From positions 96,001-160,000 of the forward strand of contig CAWJJC010000012.1 in assembly GCA_963843145.1 (NCBI GenBank): DNA of 64,000 bases, read 5' to 3'. The notes under the pieces are model-generated. The model did not search any database and was not told where the DNA came from. It was given only the letters and a program-made list of their open reading frames with translations. Shown in pieces: positions 1-41,112 of the stretch. The stretch's first letter is position 1; each line of letters begins with the position of its first letter. The translations under genes and the position numbers were made by a program. Origin of the DNA: an uncultured delta proteobacterium (GTDB lineage: Bacteria > Desulfobacterota > RBG-13-43-22).

Positions 1-485
1 GAGCGGAATATGAGCGCTTTGTGGCTGACGGAGTCCCGATGGGCCGACGGTCTGATTTAGTTGGCGGGGGGTTGATCCGCAGCGCCGGCGGTTGGTCCCA
101 GGTGCTGTCTCTGCGACGGCATAAACAGCGTATGGCCTCGGATGAGCGAATTCTGGGGAGCGGGGAGTTCATTGAGGAGGTCCTGTCCCAAGCGGAGAAA
201 CGGTTAGAGGAAACGCTCCGACTCAAAGCTCGGAAGGTTGAACTGGGTACCCTGGCCTCCCGGGTTTCCCGATCAGAAGGAATAGATTGGGACTTGGTTC
301 GGTCCGGAAGTCGAGCCGCTGAGGTAGTGAAGACCCGAAGACTTTTCTGTCAACTGGCAGTCAAAAAATTAGGATATTCGGGGGCGGAAGTAGCGCGCTA
401 CTTAGGAACAACGACGTCATCCGTTACCCGGTTGGCAAACGCCCCGGAAATGCCTGGCCTCTGTTACTCGAATTATGCAATATAG
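1..485 (+). CDS. REP-associated tyrosine transposase (RAYT, IS200/IS605 superfamily), C-terminal part; 5' end lies outside the window
   Basis: GRRSDLVGGGLIRSAGGWS and SDERILGSGEF motifs plus a C-terminal HTH (LGYSGAEVARYLG), as recalled for deltaproteobacterial RAYT-like transposases. Followed by CAACGTCCC at ~488-496. Confidence 0.75.
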   Translation, partial: AEYERFVADGVPMGRRSDLVGGGLIRSAGGWSQVLSLRRHKQRMASDERILGSGEFIEEVLSQAEKRLEETLRLKARKVELGTLASRVSRSEGIDWDLVRSGSRAAEVVKTRRLFCQLAVKKLGYSGAEVARYLGTTTSSVTRLANAPEMPGLCYSNYAI

Positions 486-829: not shown

Positions 830-901
830 GCCTAACAATCGCATACAGTCGACCCGAAAACCGCTGCGCGGGTATCGGTCGACCGATGTGTGGCGTTGGC
901 G
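830..901 (+). mobile_element. attC site 1
   Basis: R'' GCCTAAC (830-836), imperfect inverted repeat (GTCGACC..GGTCGAC), R' GTTGGCG (895-901). Confidence 0.8.
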
Positions 902-980
902 CCGCCTGCGGCGTTGCCCCTATCGGGTCCATGTTCCGGCCGGCTCCGCCTACGGCGGCGCCAACCCGGCCATTGGACAC
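899..980 (+). repeat. Conserved structured element immediately after attC, copy 1
   Basis: Near-identical to 2533-2628. Nested hairpin GTCCA..GGCCGG..CCGCC-tac-GGCGG..CCGGCC..TGGAC. Confidence 0.8.
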
Positions 981-1098
981 CAATGTCACTTGCTTGCATG
1001 GCCTTCTGCCCCGCTAGCTGCGTGCCACGGGCCAACGCCCCATTACCATATACCTTTGAAGGTCTATTTTTTGAAAACTTATTTTGGACGAGTGTGAG

Positions 1099-2424
1099 AT
1101 GAACCCTATCTGTATAGTAGACGATGAATCTTCCATCTGTTCCACAGTAGCGAGCATCCTGAAGGACGAGGGGTATCAGTCCCTCATATTTCCGGATGCG
1201 GAGAAATTCTGGCAGAGGCTTGATACAATGGAGCCCGCTCTCGTCATGCTGGATATCTGGCTCCCAGGCACAGACGGTTTGCAGCTTCTGAAACGTCTGC
1301 ATGGCCGATTTCCCGCACTCCCCATCATCATGATGAGCGGACATGCCGGCATCGAGGCAGCGGTTGCCGCCATAAAGGCCGGTGCCTACGATTTTTTGGA
1401 AAAACCGCTGCATATGGAGGTATTACTCGACAAGGTGAAGTCTGCCCTTAAGCATCGACCTTCTATGAGTGGCGCGACCCTGCCTTCGGATACGAGGCTT
1501 GAGATCGTCAGCGCCGACCTTTTGATGCCTCCAGGCATGGTGGAGGCGGTGGATTCCCCCGAACCTCAACGCACTCTCAGAGGGAATGTTGTCCTTAACG
1601 GTATAGGGCTTCTGAGCGGCCGGAACACAGGTATCATTCTGAGCCCCCTTGGGACCAATGAAGGGATCGTTTTTCAAACTCTCGACGGTCAAACCATTCG
1701 TGGACATATCACCTCCTTAGAAAATTTCCCCCAAACTGTTTCATTGAAGACCTTCTCTGCCAACTCCACCACCCTGGACAACGGCAGGCAGCAGGTGCGT
1801 ACGGTTGAACACCTGATGGCGGTTCTTTCCATGTACGGCATAACCAACGTGCTCATAAAGGTCGACGACGAGGTGCCGAACATAGACGGCTCCGCTAAGG
1901 ACTTCTGTGATCTCATATTACAGGCAGGGATAGAAGAACAGCGAGCATTCACCAGGGTTGCTGTCATCCGCCAGAAGCTCGGAGTGGGAAACGAGGAGAG
2001 GCATGAAAAGCATCTCTATGCGGAGCCTTATGAAGGGTTCGAAATATCGATGAGGGTTGATTACCCCCCACCCATAGATGAACAGATTCTCACTTTTAAT
2101 CCTGAAAAAGAATCTTTTGCAAAAGAAATAGCCCCTGCTCGCTCATTCAACACTTTTGAGAATATCGAAATAGCTCAGAAGCTTGGGAAGGTCGGAGGCG
2201 GGTATCTCCATTCCCATATCATCATGTACGAAGGCAAGGTTATCAATACGGAGCTCCGTTATGCCGACGAGTTCGTGCGTCACAAGATATTGGACCTGAT
2301 CGGAGACCTCTACCTCCTCGGCTTCCCCATCAGAGGACGTATTACCGCCAACATGACCTCTCACAGTTACAATCAGGCCCTAGTGGAACGCTTGTACCAG
2401 GCTATCCAAAGCAGCTCCAGATGA
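1099..2424 (+). CDS. lpxC: Response-regulator receiver domain fused to UDP-3-O-acyl-N-acetylglucosamine deacetylase (REC-LpxC)
   Basis: N-terminal REC motifs (IVDDE, LDIWLPG, MSGH, FLEKP). C-terminal LpxC motifs QRTL, TVEHL, EVPNIDGSA, IAPARSF, RHKILDLIGDL. Confidence 0.9.
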   Translation: MNPICIVDDESSICSTVASILKDEGYQSLIFPDAEKFWQRLDTMEPALVMLDIWLPGTDGLQLLKRLHGRFPALPIIMMSGHAGIEAAVAAIKAGAYDFLEKPLHMEVLLDKVKSALKHRPSMSGATLPSDTRLEIVSADLLMPPGMVEAVDSPEPQRTLRGNVVLNGIGLLSGRNTGIILSPLGTNEGIVFQTLDGQTIRGHITSLENFPQTVSLKTFSANSTTLDNGRQQVRTVEHLMAVLSMYGITNVLIKVDDEVPNIDGSAKDFCDLILQAGIEEQRAFTRVAVIRQKLGVGNEERHEKHLYAEPYEGFEISMRVDYPPPIDEQILTFNPEKESFAKEIAPARSFNTFENIEIAQKLGKVGGGYLHSHIIMYEGKVINTELRYADEFVRHKILDLIGDLYLLGFPIRGRITANMTSHSYNQALVERLYQAIQSSSR

Positions 2425-2486
2425 AGGTGATAAATAACTTAAGCGGAAATATGCAGCAGGAAAATACAGCAAAGAATAAAAAAGTC

Positions 2487-2536
2487 CGTTAACAACTCGT
2501 TCGAGCCGATAGTCCGGCTCAACTCATCGGTTGCGC
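2487..2536 (+). mobile_element. attC site 2 (short, ~50 nt)
   Basis: CGTTAAC-AACTC-GTTCGAGCCG..CGGCTCAAC-TCATCG-GTTGCGC with an extrahelical base. Confidence 0.7.
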
Positions 2537-2628
2537 CACCTGCGGCGTCGTCAAGGCGGCGTTGCCCCTCTCGGGTCCATGTTCCGGTCGGCGCCGCCGC
2601 TGGCGGCACCAACCAGGCCATTGGACAC
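2533..2628 (+). repeat. Conserved structured element immediately after attC, copy 2
   Basis: Matches 899-980 with a 14-nt insertion and a few substitutions. Confidence 0.8.
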
Positions 2629-2650
2629 TGCAGGAGAGGAGGTGTTTTCA

Positions 2651-3097
2651 ATGAAATATCGTGAAATCTGGCATGAAATGATCATCAAAGCTACTCCCAG
2701 CGAGCTTTACCAAGCTTTGACCGATGTGAAAAAGCTAGCGCATTGGTGGACCACCGAGACGCGGGGCGAATCTGCTGTCGGAATGAAACTGGAATTCTGG
2801 TTTTATGGAAAATTCTTAAAGGAGATGGTTGTTACCACTCTGAAGGCTGATGAACTCGTGCGGTGGCGCGCAACTGAGCGGAGCGATCCTGATTGGGTCG
2901 ACACCGAAATTGAATGGAAAATCTTCCGCGAAGGCGACAAAACGTTTCTTCACCTTCGCCACTCAAAATGGCGCGAGGATGCCAAATTTTTCCCTCAGTC
3001 CTCAATGCACTGGGTGCTTTTCATGCTTAGCCTCAAGGAATTTGTCGAGACGGGCAAAGGCCGTCCGCATCCTTATGACATGCCGGTGGGCCTATAA
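2651..3097 (+). CDS. SRPBCC/AHSA1 (START-like) domain protein, cassette
   Basis: GGAGG RBS before the ATG at 2651; ATPSELYQALT..LAHWW and W..FMLSLKEFVETGKG pattern. Confidence 0.85.
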   Translation: MKYREIWHEMIIKATPSELYQALTDVKKLAHWWTTETRGESAVGMKLEFWFYGKFLKEMVVTTLKADELVRWRATERSDPDWVDTEIEWKIFREGDKTFLHLRHSKWREDAKFFPQSSMHWVLFMLSLKEFVETGKGRPHPYDMPVGL

Positions 3098-3143
3098 AGT
3101 CCTTCTGAAGGTGTGTAATTGACAAAGGTGACAAAGCAGAATA

Positions 3144-3200
3144 GCCCAACTTGCCGTTGGAGCCGGCCTCGTACCTTGGCGGCTCAACTCTCCGTTATAC
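3144..3200 (+). mobile_element. attC site 3
   Basis: GCCCAAC..GTTGGAGCCG..CGGCTCAAC..GTTATAC, 57 nt. Confidence 0.85.
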
Positions 3201-3292
3201 GAAATAGCAATATCAATATGCCCGATGACGGACAGGCAATAAGGTTCTGCAATATGCCGGAACCGCGCGAAGTAATGAGGTGGTCATAAGAA

Positions 3293-3772
3293 ATGGAAAC
3301 TGAAGTGAAACACCTGGAAGATGAGCAACTGGCAAACGGCGTTGTGGTACGTTTTTATGATGAATCCCGCAGGGTGGCCGGTGATCGCTGGCAGGTTAGA
3401 GTGCGCTACGATGCCGTGGTCTCGGTCTCTGAAACATTTTGGAGTCTGGTGAGTGGAGAGCCGGAATTGATTGAGGAGATTCGTGCCGCCTTAGGGGGGG
3501 AGATTGTCCTTACCAACGTCAATGAGCGGAATTTTATTTCAGCGGAGGAAAAGGAGGTGTTGGTTGCCGAAATAGTCAGCCGAGCTCGGAAAAATATCTT
3601 CGGCTATCTCGCTGATCCTGGATTTCCCGAGCGATATTTTAAACGCTGTTTTAAGGAGGCGCGCGAGGAAATTGAGCGGAAAAAGAGAGAGGTGTGGGTT
3701 CCGGACAACGAAGATGTTGAAGAGCCCGTTGATTTTTCCCATCTTTTTTCAGATGTGAAAAAGAGCGAATAA
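3293..3772 (+). CDS. Hypothetical protein
   Basis: 159 aa ORF with GAGG RBS; contains YDESRRVAGDRWQV. Confidence 0.7.
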   Translation: METEVKHLEDEQLANGVVVRFYDESRRVAGDRWQVRVRYDAVVSVSETFWSLVSGEPELIEEIRAALGGEIVLTNVNERNFISAEEKEVLVAEIVSRARKNIFGYLADPGFPERYFKRCFKEAREEIERKKREVWVPDNEDVEEPVDFSHLFSDVKKSE

Positions 3773-3878
3773 CGCAAATCAATTCAGGGGGCATCTTACT
3801 TTATTTTAACCAAACAACCCACCGATTGAACCGGTGATTTTATCGTTGGCGGGTAAAAAAGGAAGGAATACGAAGCAC

Positions 3879-4391
3879 ATGAATCTGAAGATCGGTATCA
3901 GGAGCGAAACCGAGGCCGATGTGAGCGCAATAACCGAGGTGACTGTCGCCGCATTTAAGACCCTGGAGATCAGCAATCACACGGAGCAATTTATTATATT
4001 GGCACTACGCGCCGCCAAGGCCCTCACGATATCGCTGGTTGCGGAAATGGATGGCCGTGTAATTGGTCATATAGCCTTCTCTCCCCTGACCATTTCGGAC
4101 GGCACTCGAAATTGGTATGGCCTGGGACCTGTTTCGGTGTTGCCGGAGTATCAGCGGCAGGGCATGGGCCAGGCCCTGATACGGGAAGGGCTGTCACGGC
4201 TGAAAGATATGAACGCTCAAGGATGTTGTCTCGTGGGACACCCGGATTACTACAAGAAATTCGGGTTCAAGAACATGTCCGGACTTGAGCTTGAGGGAGT
4301 GCCACAGGAGGTCTTCTTCGCTCTGTCTTTCGATGGGCATACTCCGCAGGGCACTGTCACTTTTCACGACGGATTCAAGGCGGACGGCTAA
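3879..4391 (+). CDS. GNAT family N-acetyltransferase (YhbS-like), cassette
   Basis: GHIAFSP, LGPVSVLPEYQRQGMG and GHPDYYKKFGF motifs; the TAA stop overlaps the attC R'' box. Confidence 0.9.
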   Translation: MNLKIGIRSETEADVSAITEVTVAAFKTLEISNHTEQFIILALRAAKALTISLVAEMDGRVIGHIAFSPLTISDGTRNWYGLGPVSVLPEYQRQGMGQALIREGLSRLKDMNAQGCCLVGHPDYYKKFGFKNMSGLELEGVPQEVFFALSFDGHTPQGTVTFHDGFKADG

Positions 4392-4467
4392 CAAGCACCT
4401 CGACACGTACCCTTAAAGGCCGCTGTGGACGGCAGCCTTTGAGGTCCGGTCAGGCGCGACGTTAGGT
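4386..4467 (+). mobile_element. attC site 4
   Basis: GGCTAAC (overlaps the GNAT stop) ... CCT(C)GAC..GTCAGG ... GTTAGGT. Confidence 0.85.
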
Positions 4468-6644: not shown

Positions 6645-7520
6645 ATGGCAGACACACTTCACATCACGAGTGGTGATAGCGCAGGCGGAAGTCTGGCAAA
6701 GGCCGGACTTCCCGGGGAAGTATTCGTCTGGCACGACATTCTATACGATGGTCCCCGGAATCCCGGGTGGCCGAATGAAGACACTCTCGGCGCTCGCGCG
6801 CTGTTTCTGGAAGAAACCACCGCAGGTGGGTTGGATAGGGAGCGCGTTCTGGAAACACTGCGCAGCCAGTACCGGAAGCTGGCGGAAGCAGCAACCCACG
6901 AACGTATCGTCCTGTGGTTCGACGCGTGCCTTTTTGATCAGTCCATGCTCGCCCATATTCTTACCTGCCTGCACCACAGGGGCATCTTGAAAGTGGAACT
7001 CCTTTGCGTCGACGCATTCCCCGGGATCGTAACCTATCACGGACTTGGACAACTGCTGCCGGAGCAACTGGCATCCGTCTATGACAACCGACTTCCCGTC
7101 ACCGAAGAGCAATTCAGCTTTGCGGTCCTCGTCGACAAGGCCTTCGCAACTCAGAACTCAGCCATGTTGACGGAATTATCGGCAATGACAAAGGCTCCCT
7201 TGCCGTGGATTCCCGCCGCCGTAAAGCGATGGATCCAGGAGCAGCCTGACCCGAAAAGCGGGTTGGGCCGACTTGAGCGTCTCGCCTTGGCGGCAGTCCG
7301 AGGCGGGTGCGAAACACCGGGCAAGATCTTCGGATTCGTGGCTGCCGCTGATACGCCGCCGCAGTTCTGGGGAGATACGACACTGTGGGCCAAGATAAAC
7401 GGACTGGCGGACTGTGTACCTCCACTCGTGCGGATCGAAGGTCCCACCGACAGATTGCCTCAATGGGAAAGTGAGGTGTCGCTCAAGGACTTCAAGATCA
7501 AAGCTTTGCCGAACCAATAA
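6645..7520 (+). CDS. DUF1835 domain protein, cassette
   Basis: LHITSGDS, W.D.L..GP, IVLWFD.CLFDQ and FWGD motifs; AGGAG RBS. Confidence 0.8.
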   Translation: MADTLHITSGDSAGGSLAKAGLPGEVFVWHDILYDGPRNPGWPNEDTLGARALFLEETTAGGLDRERVLETLRSQYRKLAEAATHERIVLWFDACLFDQSMLAHILTCLHHRGILKVELLCVDAFPGIVTYHGLGQLLPEQLASVYDNRLPVTEEQFSFAVLVDKAFATQNSAMLTELSAMTKAPLPWIPAAVKRWIQEQPDPKSGLGRLERLALAAVRGGCETPGKIFGFVAAADTPPQFWGDTTLWAKINGLADCVPPLVRIEGPTDRLPQWESEVSLKDFKIKALPNQ

Positions 7521-7566
7521 GGATTGAGACGATCCTGAAAGGACGTTTCAATCCATTGCGCGATGC
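7508..7566 (+). mobile_element. Degenerate attC site 6 (end of array)
   Basis: GCCGAAC at the gene end and a GGATTGA..TCAATCC stem, but no GTT in R'. Confidence 0.5.
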
Positions 7567-38567: not shown

Positions 38568-41112
38568 GTTAGCTAAAGAATTGGAGATGGAAAATAAGGT
38601 CCTGGTGGACGCCATACGGGAGATGAGTATCGAGGTGAAAAGCCATTCTTCATCGCTCTCCGACGAGGAAGTGGCGTTAATTAAGGGCCATCTTAGCGGG
38701 ACCAAATCTTTGGTAGTGGAGGAACAACGGATCAAATCCACAGTCATTCGCCGCAGAAGAAAAGTCGTGGAGGTGGCACCGGAGCCGGAGGTGGAAATTC
38801 CGGCTATCGAATCCCCTCCCCAGCCGGAGCTGGAAGCACCTCCGGCGCCAGAGCCACCCCCTCCCGGCAAACCGTTGCTGGAGACACCAGGGGAACGGGA
38901 AATGGAGGGTGCCCCATCCACACTCCCGGAAAAACAACCCTTGAAAGAAGAGTTGGATCGAACGGCTAAACCGGCCCCGGAGGTTCTCCCTAAACCGGTC
39001 AGGCCACCCAAGCCACCTAAAATGACTCCGGCCAAAGTGATTCGAGCGGCTGAGCCGGTCGCCCCCCCAGCTCCAGCTCCAGCTCCAGCGTCGACGCCGG
39101 TTAAGAGGATTGAAGAAAAGAAGGAGGAAGAGACTCCCAAAAAAGAAAAAGTTCCCATCAAAAAGGGCTTAAAAACCACTCGGGTGTCGACGGAAACGGA
39201 AACTGCGAAGTCCAAGGTATTCAAAAAACGAAAAGAAATCCTGGAACGCGCGGCGCTCTACGATGATTCCGCCCGGGAAGGTCGTCCCGGCAAGGGGATG
39301 AGAAGCGGTAAATCGGCGGCCAAAAAGTATAAAAAGACCGAAATCACCACGCCGAAGGCCAGCAAACGCCGTCTCAAAATTTCCGAGGCTATCACGGTAG
39401 CCGAATTGGCCAAGCGGTTGGGCGTGAAAAGCGGTGAGTTAATGAAAAAACTCATCGCCTTGGGTCTGATGGTGACCTTGAATCAAGCCATTGATTATGA
39501 AGCCGCCGCCTTGGTGGCCGCCGAATTCGGGTATGAAGCCGAAAAGGTTTCTTTCGAGGAGGAGCAAGCTGTCCGCTTGCATACCGATCAACCGGAAGAA
39601 CTAAAGCCGCGACCTCCGGTGGTCACCATTATGGGTCATGTGGATCACGGGAAAACCTCTCTTCTGGACTTGATTCGAAAAACCAATATCACCCAGGGGG
39701 AAGTCGGCGGGATCACCCAGCATATCGGAGCGTATCACGTCAAGCTGGATCGAGGGGAGATCGTTTTTTTGGATACCCCGGGCCATGAGGCCTTTACCGC
39801 TATGCGGGCCCGGGGGGCCCAGATTACCGATATCGTGGTGTTAATCGTGGCGGCCGACGACGGGGTCATGCAGCAGACCAAAGAGGCCATCGATCATGCC
39901 CGCGCGGCGGGAGTGCCGATTATTGTAGCCATCAACAAGATCGATAAGCCCAACGCTAACACGGAACGGGTCAAAAGGCAGTTGGCCGAATATGGACTGG
40001 CGCCGGAAGACTGGGGAGGGGAAACGATTGTGGCCGAAGTCTCGGCCAAAAGCGGCCAGGGGGTGGACCATCTTCTGGAAATGATCCTGTTGCAGGCCGA
40101 AGTCTTGGAATTAAAAGCCAATCCCAAAAAACCGGCCCAGGGGCGGGTGGTGGAAGCCCGGTTGGATAAAGGGCGGGGGCCGGTGGCTACGGTCCTCATT
40201 CAGGGAGGGACCCTCAAGGCCGGAGATCCGTTTATCTGCGGCATTCATTTTGGGAAAGTACGGGCCCTCTACAATGATTGGGGGCAAAAAGTGGATCAAG
40301 CCCTCCCCTCCAGTCCGGTGGAGGTCCACGGTTTCAGTGGGGTACCCAATGCCGGAGAGGAGTTTCAGGTCAGTGAAGACGAGCGGATGGCCAAGCAGGT
40401 CAGCCTGTACCGGGTGCAGAAAAAAAGGGAGGCCGAACTCTCCAAGACCAGCAAGCTCACCCTGGAAAAATTGTACGAACAAATACAAGAAGGCCAGGTC
40501 AAAGAGCTGACGCTGATTCTGAAGGCCGACGTCCAGGGATCCCTCGAAGCCATCAGTGAGGCCCTGAACAAATTAAGCACTGCGGCGGTAAAGGTCGTTA
40601 CCCTTCACAGTTCCACCGGGGCCATCACCGAAACCGATATCATGCTGGCCTCAGCTTCCAAGGCCATCATCATCGGTTTCAACGTTCGCCCCAATCCCAA
40701 GGCCCAGGAATTGGCGGAACAGGAACAGGTGGACGTCCGTTTTTACGATATTATTTACAATTTGGTTTCGGAAGTGAAAGACGCTATGACCGGCATGCTG
40801 GACCCCATCCATAAAGTGGTGGTCAACGGTCACGCCGAAGTCCGTGAGTTGTTTCACGTTCCTAAGGTGGGCACCGTGGCCGGGTGCGGCGTCACGGATG
40901 GTAAGATCGACCGCAATGCCAAGGCCCGCCTCCTCCGGGACAACGTGGTGATCTTTGACGGCCGCCTTTCCTCCCTGCGGCGTTTCAAGGACGATGCCCG
41001 GGAAGTCTTGGCCGGTTTTGAATGCGGCCTCAGCCTGGAAGGGTATAACGATATTAAAGTCGGAGATACGATTGAGTCGTACTACCTGGAGGAGGTCAAG
41101 GCCACGCTGTAA
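38545..41112 (+). CDS. infB: Translation initiation factor IF-2
   Basis: [20 protein letters not shown]. Confidence 0.98.

Follow-up and report, generated by a model that had tools for sequence, protein, structure and literature searches.

What is a conserved, palindromic and gene-less sequence doing exactly at the joints of an integron cassette array? The question is raised by the first few thousand bases of a 64,000-nucleotide (nt) stretch of DNA from an uncultured delta proteobacterium (GenBank assembly GCA_963843145.1, contig CAWJJC010000012.1, positions 96,001 to 160,000), to which we refer as the window. A first-pass annotation, made from the letters alone, had noticed that a near-identical structured non-coding element of about 85-95 nt begins two unrelated cassettes, and had offered three readings: a miniature inverted-repeat transposable element (MITE) that targets crossover sites, a portable promoter or RNA leader, or a footprint of how cassettes are created. 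Our results favor the view, to which we give a probability of about three in four, that the element is a cassette in its own right: a gene-less integron cassette consisting of a single attC-type site that is cut at its own crossover. Gene-less cassettes as such are already known; new here is the minimal, attC-only form, found in an uncultured order of Thermodesulfobacteriota.

The repeat itself is real. When the window is compared with itself, a 73-nt segment at 908-980 recurs at 2556-2628 with 89% identity, and these two copies, A and B, are the sole members of their repeat family in the window. Aligned together with their flanks, they have their 5' bases in common as well, and a 14-nt block is present in copy B alone; since copies differ by insertions and deletions of 14 nt and other lengths, a reading frame is excluded. 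The flanked alignment also defines the full unit, which runs from TTGGCG through CAACGCCGCA and is followed by TT. Its extent had been misjudged: copy A does not stop at 980 but runs from 896 to 1042, with its right crossover between A1042 and T1043, whereas copy B is, to judge by its sequence, a decayed, 3'-truncated deletion derivative. Compared with an intact arrangement in a related genome (G005:C12), it lacks hairpin P3 with arm g, as well as ~145 nt from the start of the following SRPBCC cassette, so that one deletion, taking the 3' half of the unit together with the start of the next cassette, would account for it. The proposed link to the attC GTT held in that the left end is tied to a crossover, but the starts originally assigned, 899 and 2533, lie 3 and 2 nt inside the unit. 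The attC sites upstream of the two copies indeed differ, as do the genes downstream (Response_reg plus LpxC and AHSA1/SRPBCC). The nested hairpin is likewise present, including its apical CCGCC/GGCGG stem with loops TAC and GCT; it is the bottom strand, however, that folds better, with z-scores of -4.10 and -4.29 against -2.69 and -1.21 for the top strand. Searches against Rfam 15 gave no relevant match, either on both strands of positions 780-2700 at E-values up to 10 or in the whole window at the gathering score.

To see how far the element extends, we used the window's own genome (G000), 20 other genomes of its family, which in the genome set comprises the whole order, and an outgroup of 20 genomes, one for each of 20 other families of the phylum. 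BLAST and nhmmer profile searches located 17 copies on nine contigs of G000, two of them just upstream of the window (G000:C12:93584-93690 and 95119-95269). By BLAST, the element is present in 19 of the 20 relatives and in none of the 20 genomes from other families; no match was found among 72,556 plasmids. Recurrence on this scale cannot be put down to chance. An exact 18-mer of the unit occurs at 59 public loci, 50 of which hold the unit according to the profile search and nine of which do not; 48 of the 50 are labelled as delta- or Thermodesulfobacteriota and two as Pseudomonadota/Gammaproteobacteria. After removal of identical sequences, 111 copies remained: 50 of a long form (~150-165 nt), 43 of a short form (~105 nt, the 3' two thirds of the unit), seven with the 5' part only and 11 others. 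The element is conserved at 75-95% across four genera and reaches up to ~16 copies per genome. The copies that we inspected lie mostly within cassette arrays, not scattered through ordinary intergenic regions as the first-pass annotation would have expected of an ordinary repetitive extragenic palindrome (REP). As a separate observation, a ~20-nt repeat with GACGCTGTAGGCAGG adjoins two decayed copies (G000:C28, ~40900-40930; G000:C21, ~126830-126860).

The attC character of the element shows in its 3' part. The attC consensus consists of the boxes R'' (..AAC), L'' (GTT-like), L' (..AAC) and R' (GTT..), with spacers of about 5 nt, R'' being complementary to R' and L'' to L'. All four boxes can be recognized in the element: CACCAAC, 5 nt, CATTGGAC, a hairpin, GTCAACG, 5 nt and ATT.., the first of them being either CACCAAC or CGCCAAC. 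The spacing of this 3' half, 7-5-8-hairpin-7-5-7, is that of the ordinary attC sites in the same arrays, and L'' carries one additional base. The R'' box and five further bases are complementary to the first 12 bases of the unit itself, as one would expect of two segments that come together in a circular cassette. As bottom-strand DNA, the site permuted in this way folds into one long hairpin with single-base bulges C, T and T, all on the 3' arm; in 30 distinct short copies, 90.1% of the positions of this attC-type fold are paired on the bottom strand, a value reached by one of 500 shuffles. Read in order, the short form starts with TT, extended by 9 nt (arm a). After a loop of 3 nt come R'' and its extension, a spacer of 5 nt and L'' with its extra base, then a conserved hairpin in the place of the variable terminal structure, L' and another spacer; ...GCA closes the unit before the TT of the next cassette. 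Cassettes with genes also use sites of this type as their regular attC. Eleven copies start at R'', and five of these have an open reading frame (ORF) ending 4-35 nt upstream; on G000:C27, R'' has changed to TTCCAAC in step with a cassette start TTGAAAT. Taken together, the sequences have what one would ask of a gene-less cassette: a crossover on both sides, an attC of its own, no ORF, paralogous copies within genomes and confinement to one lineage.

If the element is a cassette, its left end should adjoin recombination sites. The 5' end can be defined in 68 copies; in 51 of these a G precedes the unit, and 35 open with the hexamer TTGGCG. Among the 31 long copies without the module described next, at least 18 have as their left neighbor an ordinary attC, recognized by eye from a box ending in AAC and an imperfect inverted repeat. 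The other kind of left neighbor, detected with a profile at 13 of the 68 copies, is an AT-rich promoter module that ends in ...ATATTG/TT (the slash marks the crossover) and carries TTGACA-17 nt-TATTGA/TATTAT with a preceding TG, 20-25 nt upstream of the element. Elsewhere the same module leads, after the same G/TT, into many unrelated cassette starts. In one relative (G002:C17), the module stands beside the start of a frameshifted intI gene on a contig that breaks exactly at the crossover. These features suggest that the module behaves like an attI site with a cassette promoter. It adjoins eight of 28 short copies and five of 36 long ones, a weak hint, from a biased sample, that short copies favor it. 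G000 has seven such modules, each with ...ATTG/TT and a different cassette start (G000:C12:93501-93583, C21:112863, C2:121143, C27:274355, C6:154273, C28:720297 and C15:2-57). They look like solo attI-plus-promoter platforms, possibly remnants or possibly mobile themselves.

The right end tells a similar story. Of the 88 copies that reach it, 77 end in ATT, four in GTT and seven otherwise, and the hexamers that follow are diverse and resemble cassette starts (TTGGGC in nine copies, TTAGCC in eight, TTAGGC in five, and others). Neighbor exchanges show where the following cassette begins. The SRPBCC cassette, which starts with TTGGGCAT, stands directly behind the element in G005:C12 and behind a different palindromic unit in G003:C53, with a leader of ~150 nt identical in both, and the R'' box of the cassette's own attC is complementary to the TTGGGCAT start. 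A toxin-antitoxin-like cassette starting with TTATG is located behind the element at one locus (L027) and behind an ordinary attC at another (L095). Contigs from two RNA-library runs match the LpxC cassette of the window only from position 1043 on, one of them being preceded by ...TTGGTG at the junction; as contigs, these data carry no strand, start or level, and parts that they leave uncovered are not evidence. The three comparisons indicate that the cassette behind the element is separate. The element does not, as had been proposed, start the downstream cassettes: their first bases are the TT that follows ...GCA, and at other loci different sites precede them. A homolog of the Response-regulator-LpxC protein in G020 is not decisive for this boundary, its homology running from the start codon on with unlike leaders. 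In G003:C53 (locus L102), ~150 nt upstream of the SRPBCC cassette, the element's place is taken by another gene-less unit of ~170 nt, with 22-nt perfect inverted ends and GAT rather than GTT at both junctions, which points to at least two gene-less cassette families in this lineage.

Which strand is under selection can be read from the mismatches. Across the 67 pairs of the long-form fold, top-strand A.C or C.A, equivalent to G.U on the bottom strand, occurs in 240 cells, compared with 94 for top-strand G.T. Standard pairs in the same 43 copies amount to 90.0% on the bottom strand versus 84.2% on the top strand, and in the long hairpin to 88.7% versus 79.7%. Two-sided changes are few and mostly located in the hairpin, one pair being A-T in 22 and C-G in 13 of the 43 copies. 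RNAalifold, applied to the top-strand alignment, returned only eight pairs, and the structure was then derived from single-sequence folds and pair counts. This asymmetry fits a folded bottom strand, as in attC sites, or a bottom-strand RNA, and not a top-strand leader. It bears directly on the possibility that the element is a cis-acting top-strand RNA leader, riboswitch-like or affecting translation or stability, which would be transcribed from the module promoter or by read-through and control the gene 15-60 nt downstream. Several facts agree with such a leader: the element is always upstream of the next ORF on the same strand, the promoter-like module precedes 13 of 68 copies by 20-25 nt, the top-strand RNA of a near-consensus copy folds at -97.4 kcal/mol, and pieces of the element occur in RNA-library contigs. 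Other considerations speak against it. Co-orientation with genes is expected for anything in a cassette array; the contigs are strandless and RNA libraries may contain DNA; pairing is worse on the top strand; and no Rfam match emerged even at E-values up to 10. Moreover, the downstream genes are unrelated (Response_reg plus LpxC, AHSA1/SRPBCC, an IS200-like transposase, toxin-antitoxin-like genes and unknowns), the same cassettes are found without the element, and its 3' half alone is also present behind ORFs, like an ordinary attC. We thus regard an RNA leader as very improbable: of the earlier proposal of a portable promoter or leader, the portability stands, while the leader is disfavored.

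The long form differs from the short one by ~55 extra nt between arm a and the site. This insert repeats the two arms in inverted orientation and lacks the hairpin: it is identical to the site arms at 49 of 55 positions when inverted and at 39 of 55 in direct orientation, and the two small hairpins have loops that are reverse-complementary to one another. The inverted copy provides each arm of the site with a near-perfect partner in the insert, giving a three-way junction and a 5' hairpin. The long form may go back to two units side by side, one direct and the other inserted in inverted orientation, of which one hairpin was then lost, and on the basis of its predicted fold it would recombine less readily.

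The gene-less cassette would then move as follows. The bottom (-) strand would fold like other attC sites, and the integron integrase would cut the element at its crossover. Together with the upstream site, this would allow excision of the unit, with reinsertion at attI-like sites or exchange at attC sites, and reinsertion would place the unit before unrelated cassettes. Mobility of the element would in this scheme be IntI-dependent, the short form representing the recombination-ready state and the long form a partly locked one. Integron integrases scoring above the TIGR02249 cut-off are encoded in six of the 21 family genomes, with complete genes on, for example, G016:C14 and G019:C5. The regions around complete intI genes (L092-L098) mostly offer a contig end or no module, and locus L099 (G002:C17:137000-139072) alone is informative. 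The integrase there is split into an N-terminal part and a catalytic C-terminal part in different frames and scores 258 bits, just under the 265-bit cut-off; it is either a pseudogene or an assembly error.

Several observations weigh against regarding the element as a mobile gene-less cassette. We found no orthologous array differing only by the presence or absence of the element. G000 itself has no integrase above the cut-off (its best match reaches 86 bits against the required 265), which makes present-day mobility in this genome doubtful. The crossover base is A in 77 of 88 copies, a departure from the canonical GTT, and we know of no test of integrase cutting at an A crossover, although the base could still pair with R'' as a T.G wobble on the bottom strand. 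The share of attC neighbors on the left was judged by eye, and both automatic tests performed poorly: an anchored AAC:GTT hairpin test called an upstream attC at only eight of 41 copies, and in an 80-nt minimum-free-energy test, with 600 random GTT sites for comparison, one of the 55 flanks without a module fell under the 5th percentile. Both were dropped in favor of inspection. A crude attC finder, tried on G000:C12:92-112 kb, missed most visible attC sites and produced false ones. Rfam, which has no attC model, missed all attC sites of the window, so that membership in this class relies on architecture and junctions. In the long form, the fold with paired L boxes is less stable than the three-way junction by an average of 8.1 kcal/mol (37 usable of 43 copies), and this form may be incapable of recombining. 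Finally, the whole unit is conserved, including the hairpin that varies freely in other attC sites, which leaves room for a further function.

Some copies follow a stop codon directly, with no other attC in between; at locus L073 the stop codon lies 7 nt before G/TT. Such an arrangement could mean that the short form is a free-standing portable attC, that is, a selfish 'empty' cassette depending on the integron integrase. Landing behind a gene, at a secondary site of the GTT type, it would furnish this gene with a recombination site and thereby turn it into a new cassette. The long form would then be the record of a wrong-strand (inverted) insertion, now a self-locking three-way junction. A search for the empty site of the gene upstream of the L073 copy yielded no homolog in the other 20 genomes. 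We consider this extended scenario unlikely. Were it correct, it would touch on the origin of cassettes, a question still open that the first-pass annotation had also raised; the connection to cassette genesis is speculative.

The presence of an IS200-like (Y1_Tnp) transposase gene between two copies (G000:C12:95484-96485) raises the question of whether a transposase, rather than an integrase, might move the element. It could be a REP or REPIN (a paired form of REP) of the IS200-like, REP-associated tyrosine transposase (RAYT)-type gene, or else a MITE that goes back to an insertion sequence (IS) or group II intron targeting attC sites, and its being palindromic, short, multi-copy and limited to one lineage would agree with that. 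Yet close paralogs of the gene (89-90% identity), two on G000:C15 and another on C5, occur on contigs without the element, none of the 17 matches being located there, and in G003:C47 the 3' end of the gene is joined to another cassette with no element. The two copies on either side of the gene have the same orientation, where REPs served by a RAYT would be inverted. Each end of the element falls on an integron crossover, with no target duplications beyond the crossover, and there was no match to a group II intron or any other Rfam family and none in the 72,556 plasmids. A transposase-driven origin is accordingly among the least credible explanations, with hardly any probability left to it. We rejected the REP/RAYT variant based on the local IS200-like gene (its paralogs lack the element, whose ends are integron crossovers) as well as the group II intron and IS1111-type variants (no ORF, no intron RNA match, and the unit itself is an attC). 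The earlier suggestion of a MITE was nevertheless close in spirit, since a non-autonomous unit moved by an integrase is much the same idea; what found no support is a MITE driven by a transposase.

If the hairpin is conserved for a reason other than recombination, a promoter is one candidate. Sigma-54 promoters have the consensus TGGCAC-N5-TTGC, with GG at -24 and GC at -12 at a fixed spacing. On the bottom strand, within the hairpin, a strict match to this motif occurs in 37 of the 101 copies that contain the hairpin, and GG-N10-GC in register in 71 of them; the neighboring CCA is at least 90% conserved in spite of being unpaired in the fold, and a candidate gene for a sigma-54-type activator, recognized by eye from its translation, lies 4 kb upstream. 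The cassette might thus additionally be kept for an outward, antisense promoter on the bottom strand, directed toward the upstream attC or attI (intI) and either silencing the upstream cassette or driving the integrase, an idea compatible with a gene-less cassette. Antisense promoters in gene-less Vibrio cassettes are on record (10.1101/2023.11.21.568050). Against this, the -12 part falls in paired, covarying positions (among them the A-T/C-G pair mentioned above), so structure may explain much of the conservation; the hairpin arms are equally conserved, the core dinucleotides are out of register or missing in 30 of the 101 copies, and the RNA-library contigs gave no readable transcript start. 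Such an additional role seems to us quite unlikely.

How does the element compare with known systems? IS1111-attC insertion sequences and group IIC-attC introns, 1.5-2 kb long, insert at attC sites and encode a transposase or a reverse transcriptase. The element resembles them in being found at attC sites of cassette arrays, but it has neither an ORF nor an intron RNA match and is itself an attC. With MITEs and REPINs it shares the properties of being short, palindromic, non-coding and multi-copy and the need for an enzyme supplied in trans; it differs in that its ends are integron crossovers instead of terminal inverted repeats with target duplications, that it would presumably be served by a tyrosine recombinase, which acts on a single strand in folded form, and that there is no link to the local IS200-like gene. 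In sedentary chromosomal integrons, exemplified by the Vibrio cholerae repeats, the attC sites form a homogeneous family whose bottom strand folds with bulges on one arm. Like these repeats, the element represents one attC type, conserved from end to end, apical hairpin included, and present many times in a lineage; unlike them, it is one among many dissimilar attC sites, is mostly free of cargo and has an ATT crossover in 77 of 88 copies. The closest relatives in kind are the gene-less cassettes of Vibrio chromosomal integrons, described as paralogous, more than 80% identical between related species, restricted to a lineage, and proposed to be either selfish or useful (Boucher et al. 2006, PMC1382264). 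The likeness extends to the absence of an ORF, many copies per array, confinement to a lineage and the proposals of selfishness or promoter activity (PMC1382264; Blanco et al. 2023, 10.1101/2023.11.21.568050). What sets our element apart is that it is almost bodyless, its short form being the site plus 14 nt, to which the long form adds the inverted arms. Its host is an uncultured order of Thermodesulfobacteriota, and many of its copies reside in integrase-less arrays. Literature searches by title and abstract brought up no paper on an attC-only cassette or on the arrays of this lineage, though cassette tables within papers may hold cases.

A large part of chromosomal integron arrays is taken up by non-coding cassettes, about which little is understood. 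The element would be their limiting case, a cassette reduced to its recombination site. Provided that it does move in the proposed way, it would be the equivalent of a MITE among integrons, and a simple substrate on which the requirements of an attC could be studied. The long form, in turn, offers a natural test of whether alternative folding turns an attC off. There are also practical consequences for annotation: two adjacent attC-like sites need not mean a missed gene, and conserved '5' leaders' in arrays can be separate cassettes.

Table 1. Positions of the element copies, their parts and the surrounding cassettes in the window (slashes mark crossovers)
Feature	Position	Strand	Remarks
Element copy A	896-1042	(-), presumed working strand	Putative gene-less cassette, long form, with a 14-nt deletion in the 5' hairpin
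Copy A, arm a	896-906		R' half and extension
Copy A, block c	908-920
Copy A, block d	924-950		Loop 951-953
Copy A, arm e	954-985		R'' 959-965, spacer 966-970, L'' 971-978
Copy A, hairpin P3	986-1028		Variable terminal structure
Copy A, arm g	1029-1042		L' 1031-1037, spacer 1038-1041
Element copy B	2531-2628	(-)	5' part only; profile positions 4-102
Copy B, parts	2531-2628		Arm a 2531-2540, arm b 2544-2555, c 2556-2568, d 2572-2598, loop 2599-2601, e 2602-2628
IS200-like (Y1_Tnp) transposase gene, 3' part	3-485	(+)	Cassette cargo; C-terminal part unmatched
Ordinary attC of the preceding cassette	830-895	(+)	R''-type box ending in AAC at 830-836; crossover G895/T896
Response-regulator-LpxC cassette	1043-2530	(+)	Leader 1043-1098, ORF 1099-2424, attC ~2486-2530; crossover G2530/T2531
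AHSA1/SRPBCC cassette, remainder	2629-3194	(+)	ORF 2651-3097, attC 3144-3194 with R''-type box GCCCAAC at 3144-3150; crossover G3194/T3195
Two further cassettes without the element	3195-4461	(+)	Same array
159-aa ORF cassette		(+)	ORF 3293-3772, attC 3812-3845; crossover G3845/T3846
GNAT acetyltransferase cassette		(+)	ORF 3879-4391, attC ~4390-4461; attC ends at ~G4461

The window begins inside the cassette array (Table 1). Its first gene is the Y1_Tnp gene discussed above, the cargo of the cassette unit between the element copy at G000:C12:95119-95269, outside the window, and copy A; the whole ORF (L004:1862-2863) matches Pfam Y1_Tnp with an E-value of 3.3e-10, and the part inside the window has no Pfam match by itself. 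The ordinary attC that precedes copy A scores -0.40 kcal/nt in the anchored hairpin test. The protein of the next cassette combines LpxC (Pfam E-value 9.4e-74) with Response_reg (3.7e-27), and that of the following one matches AHSA1 (1.1e-08) and has homologous cassettes in G005, G003 and G002. Within the first 7600 nt of the window, single cassettes (those of the 159-aa ORF, GNAT and SRPBCC) recur at 93-98% identity in other genera, with order and neighbors that differ between genera. In G002:C33 some cassette junctions are not at attC sites, which points to deletions as well as recombination. Upstream of the window, a 273-aa ORF (G000:C12:92688-93509) ends 25 nt before an attI-like module on the same strand with no attC in between; from the S-T-F-K motif in its translation, and by eye, we take its product to have the look of a class D beta-lactamase or a penicillin-binding-type protein. 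Further into the window, just past an ORF ending at 7520, positions 7508-7558 form a 50-nt palindrome with AAT...ATT ends, which recurs, 88-98% identical, at some 20 sites distributed over 12 family genomes, some of which contain several copies, and may represent another attC-like or terminator-like repeat family.

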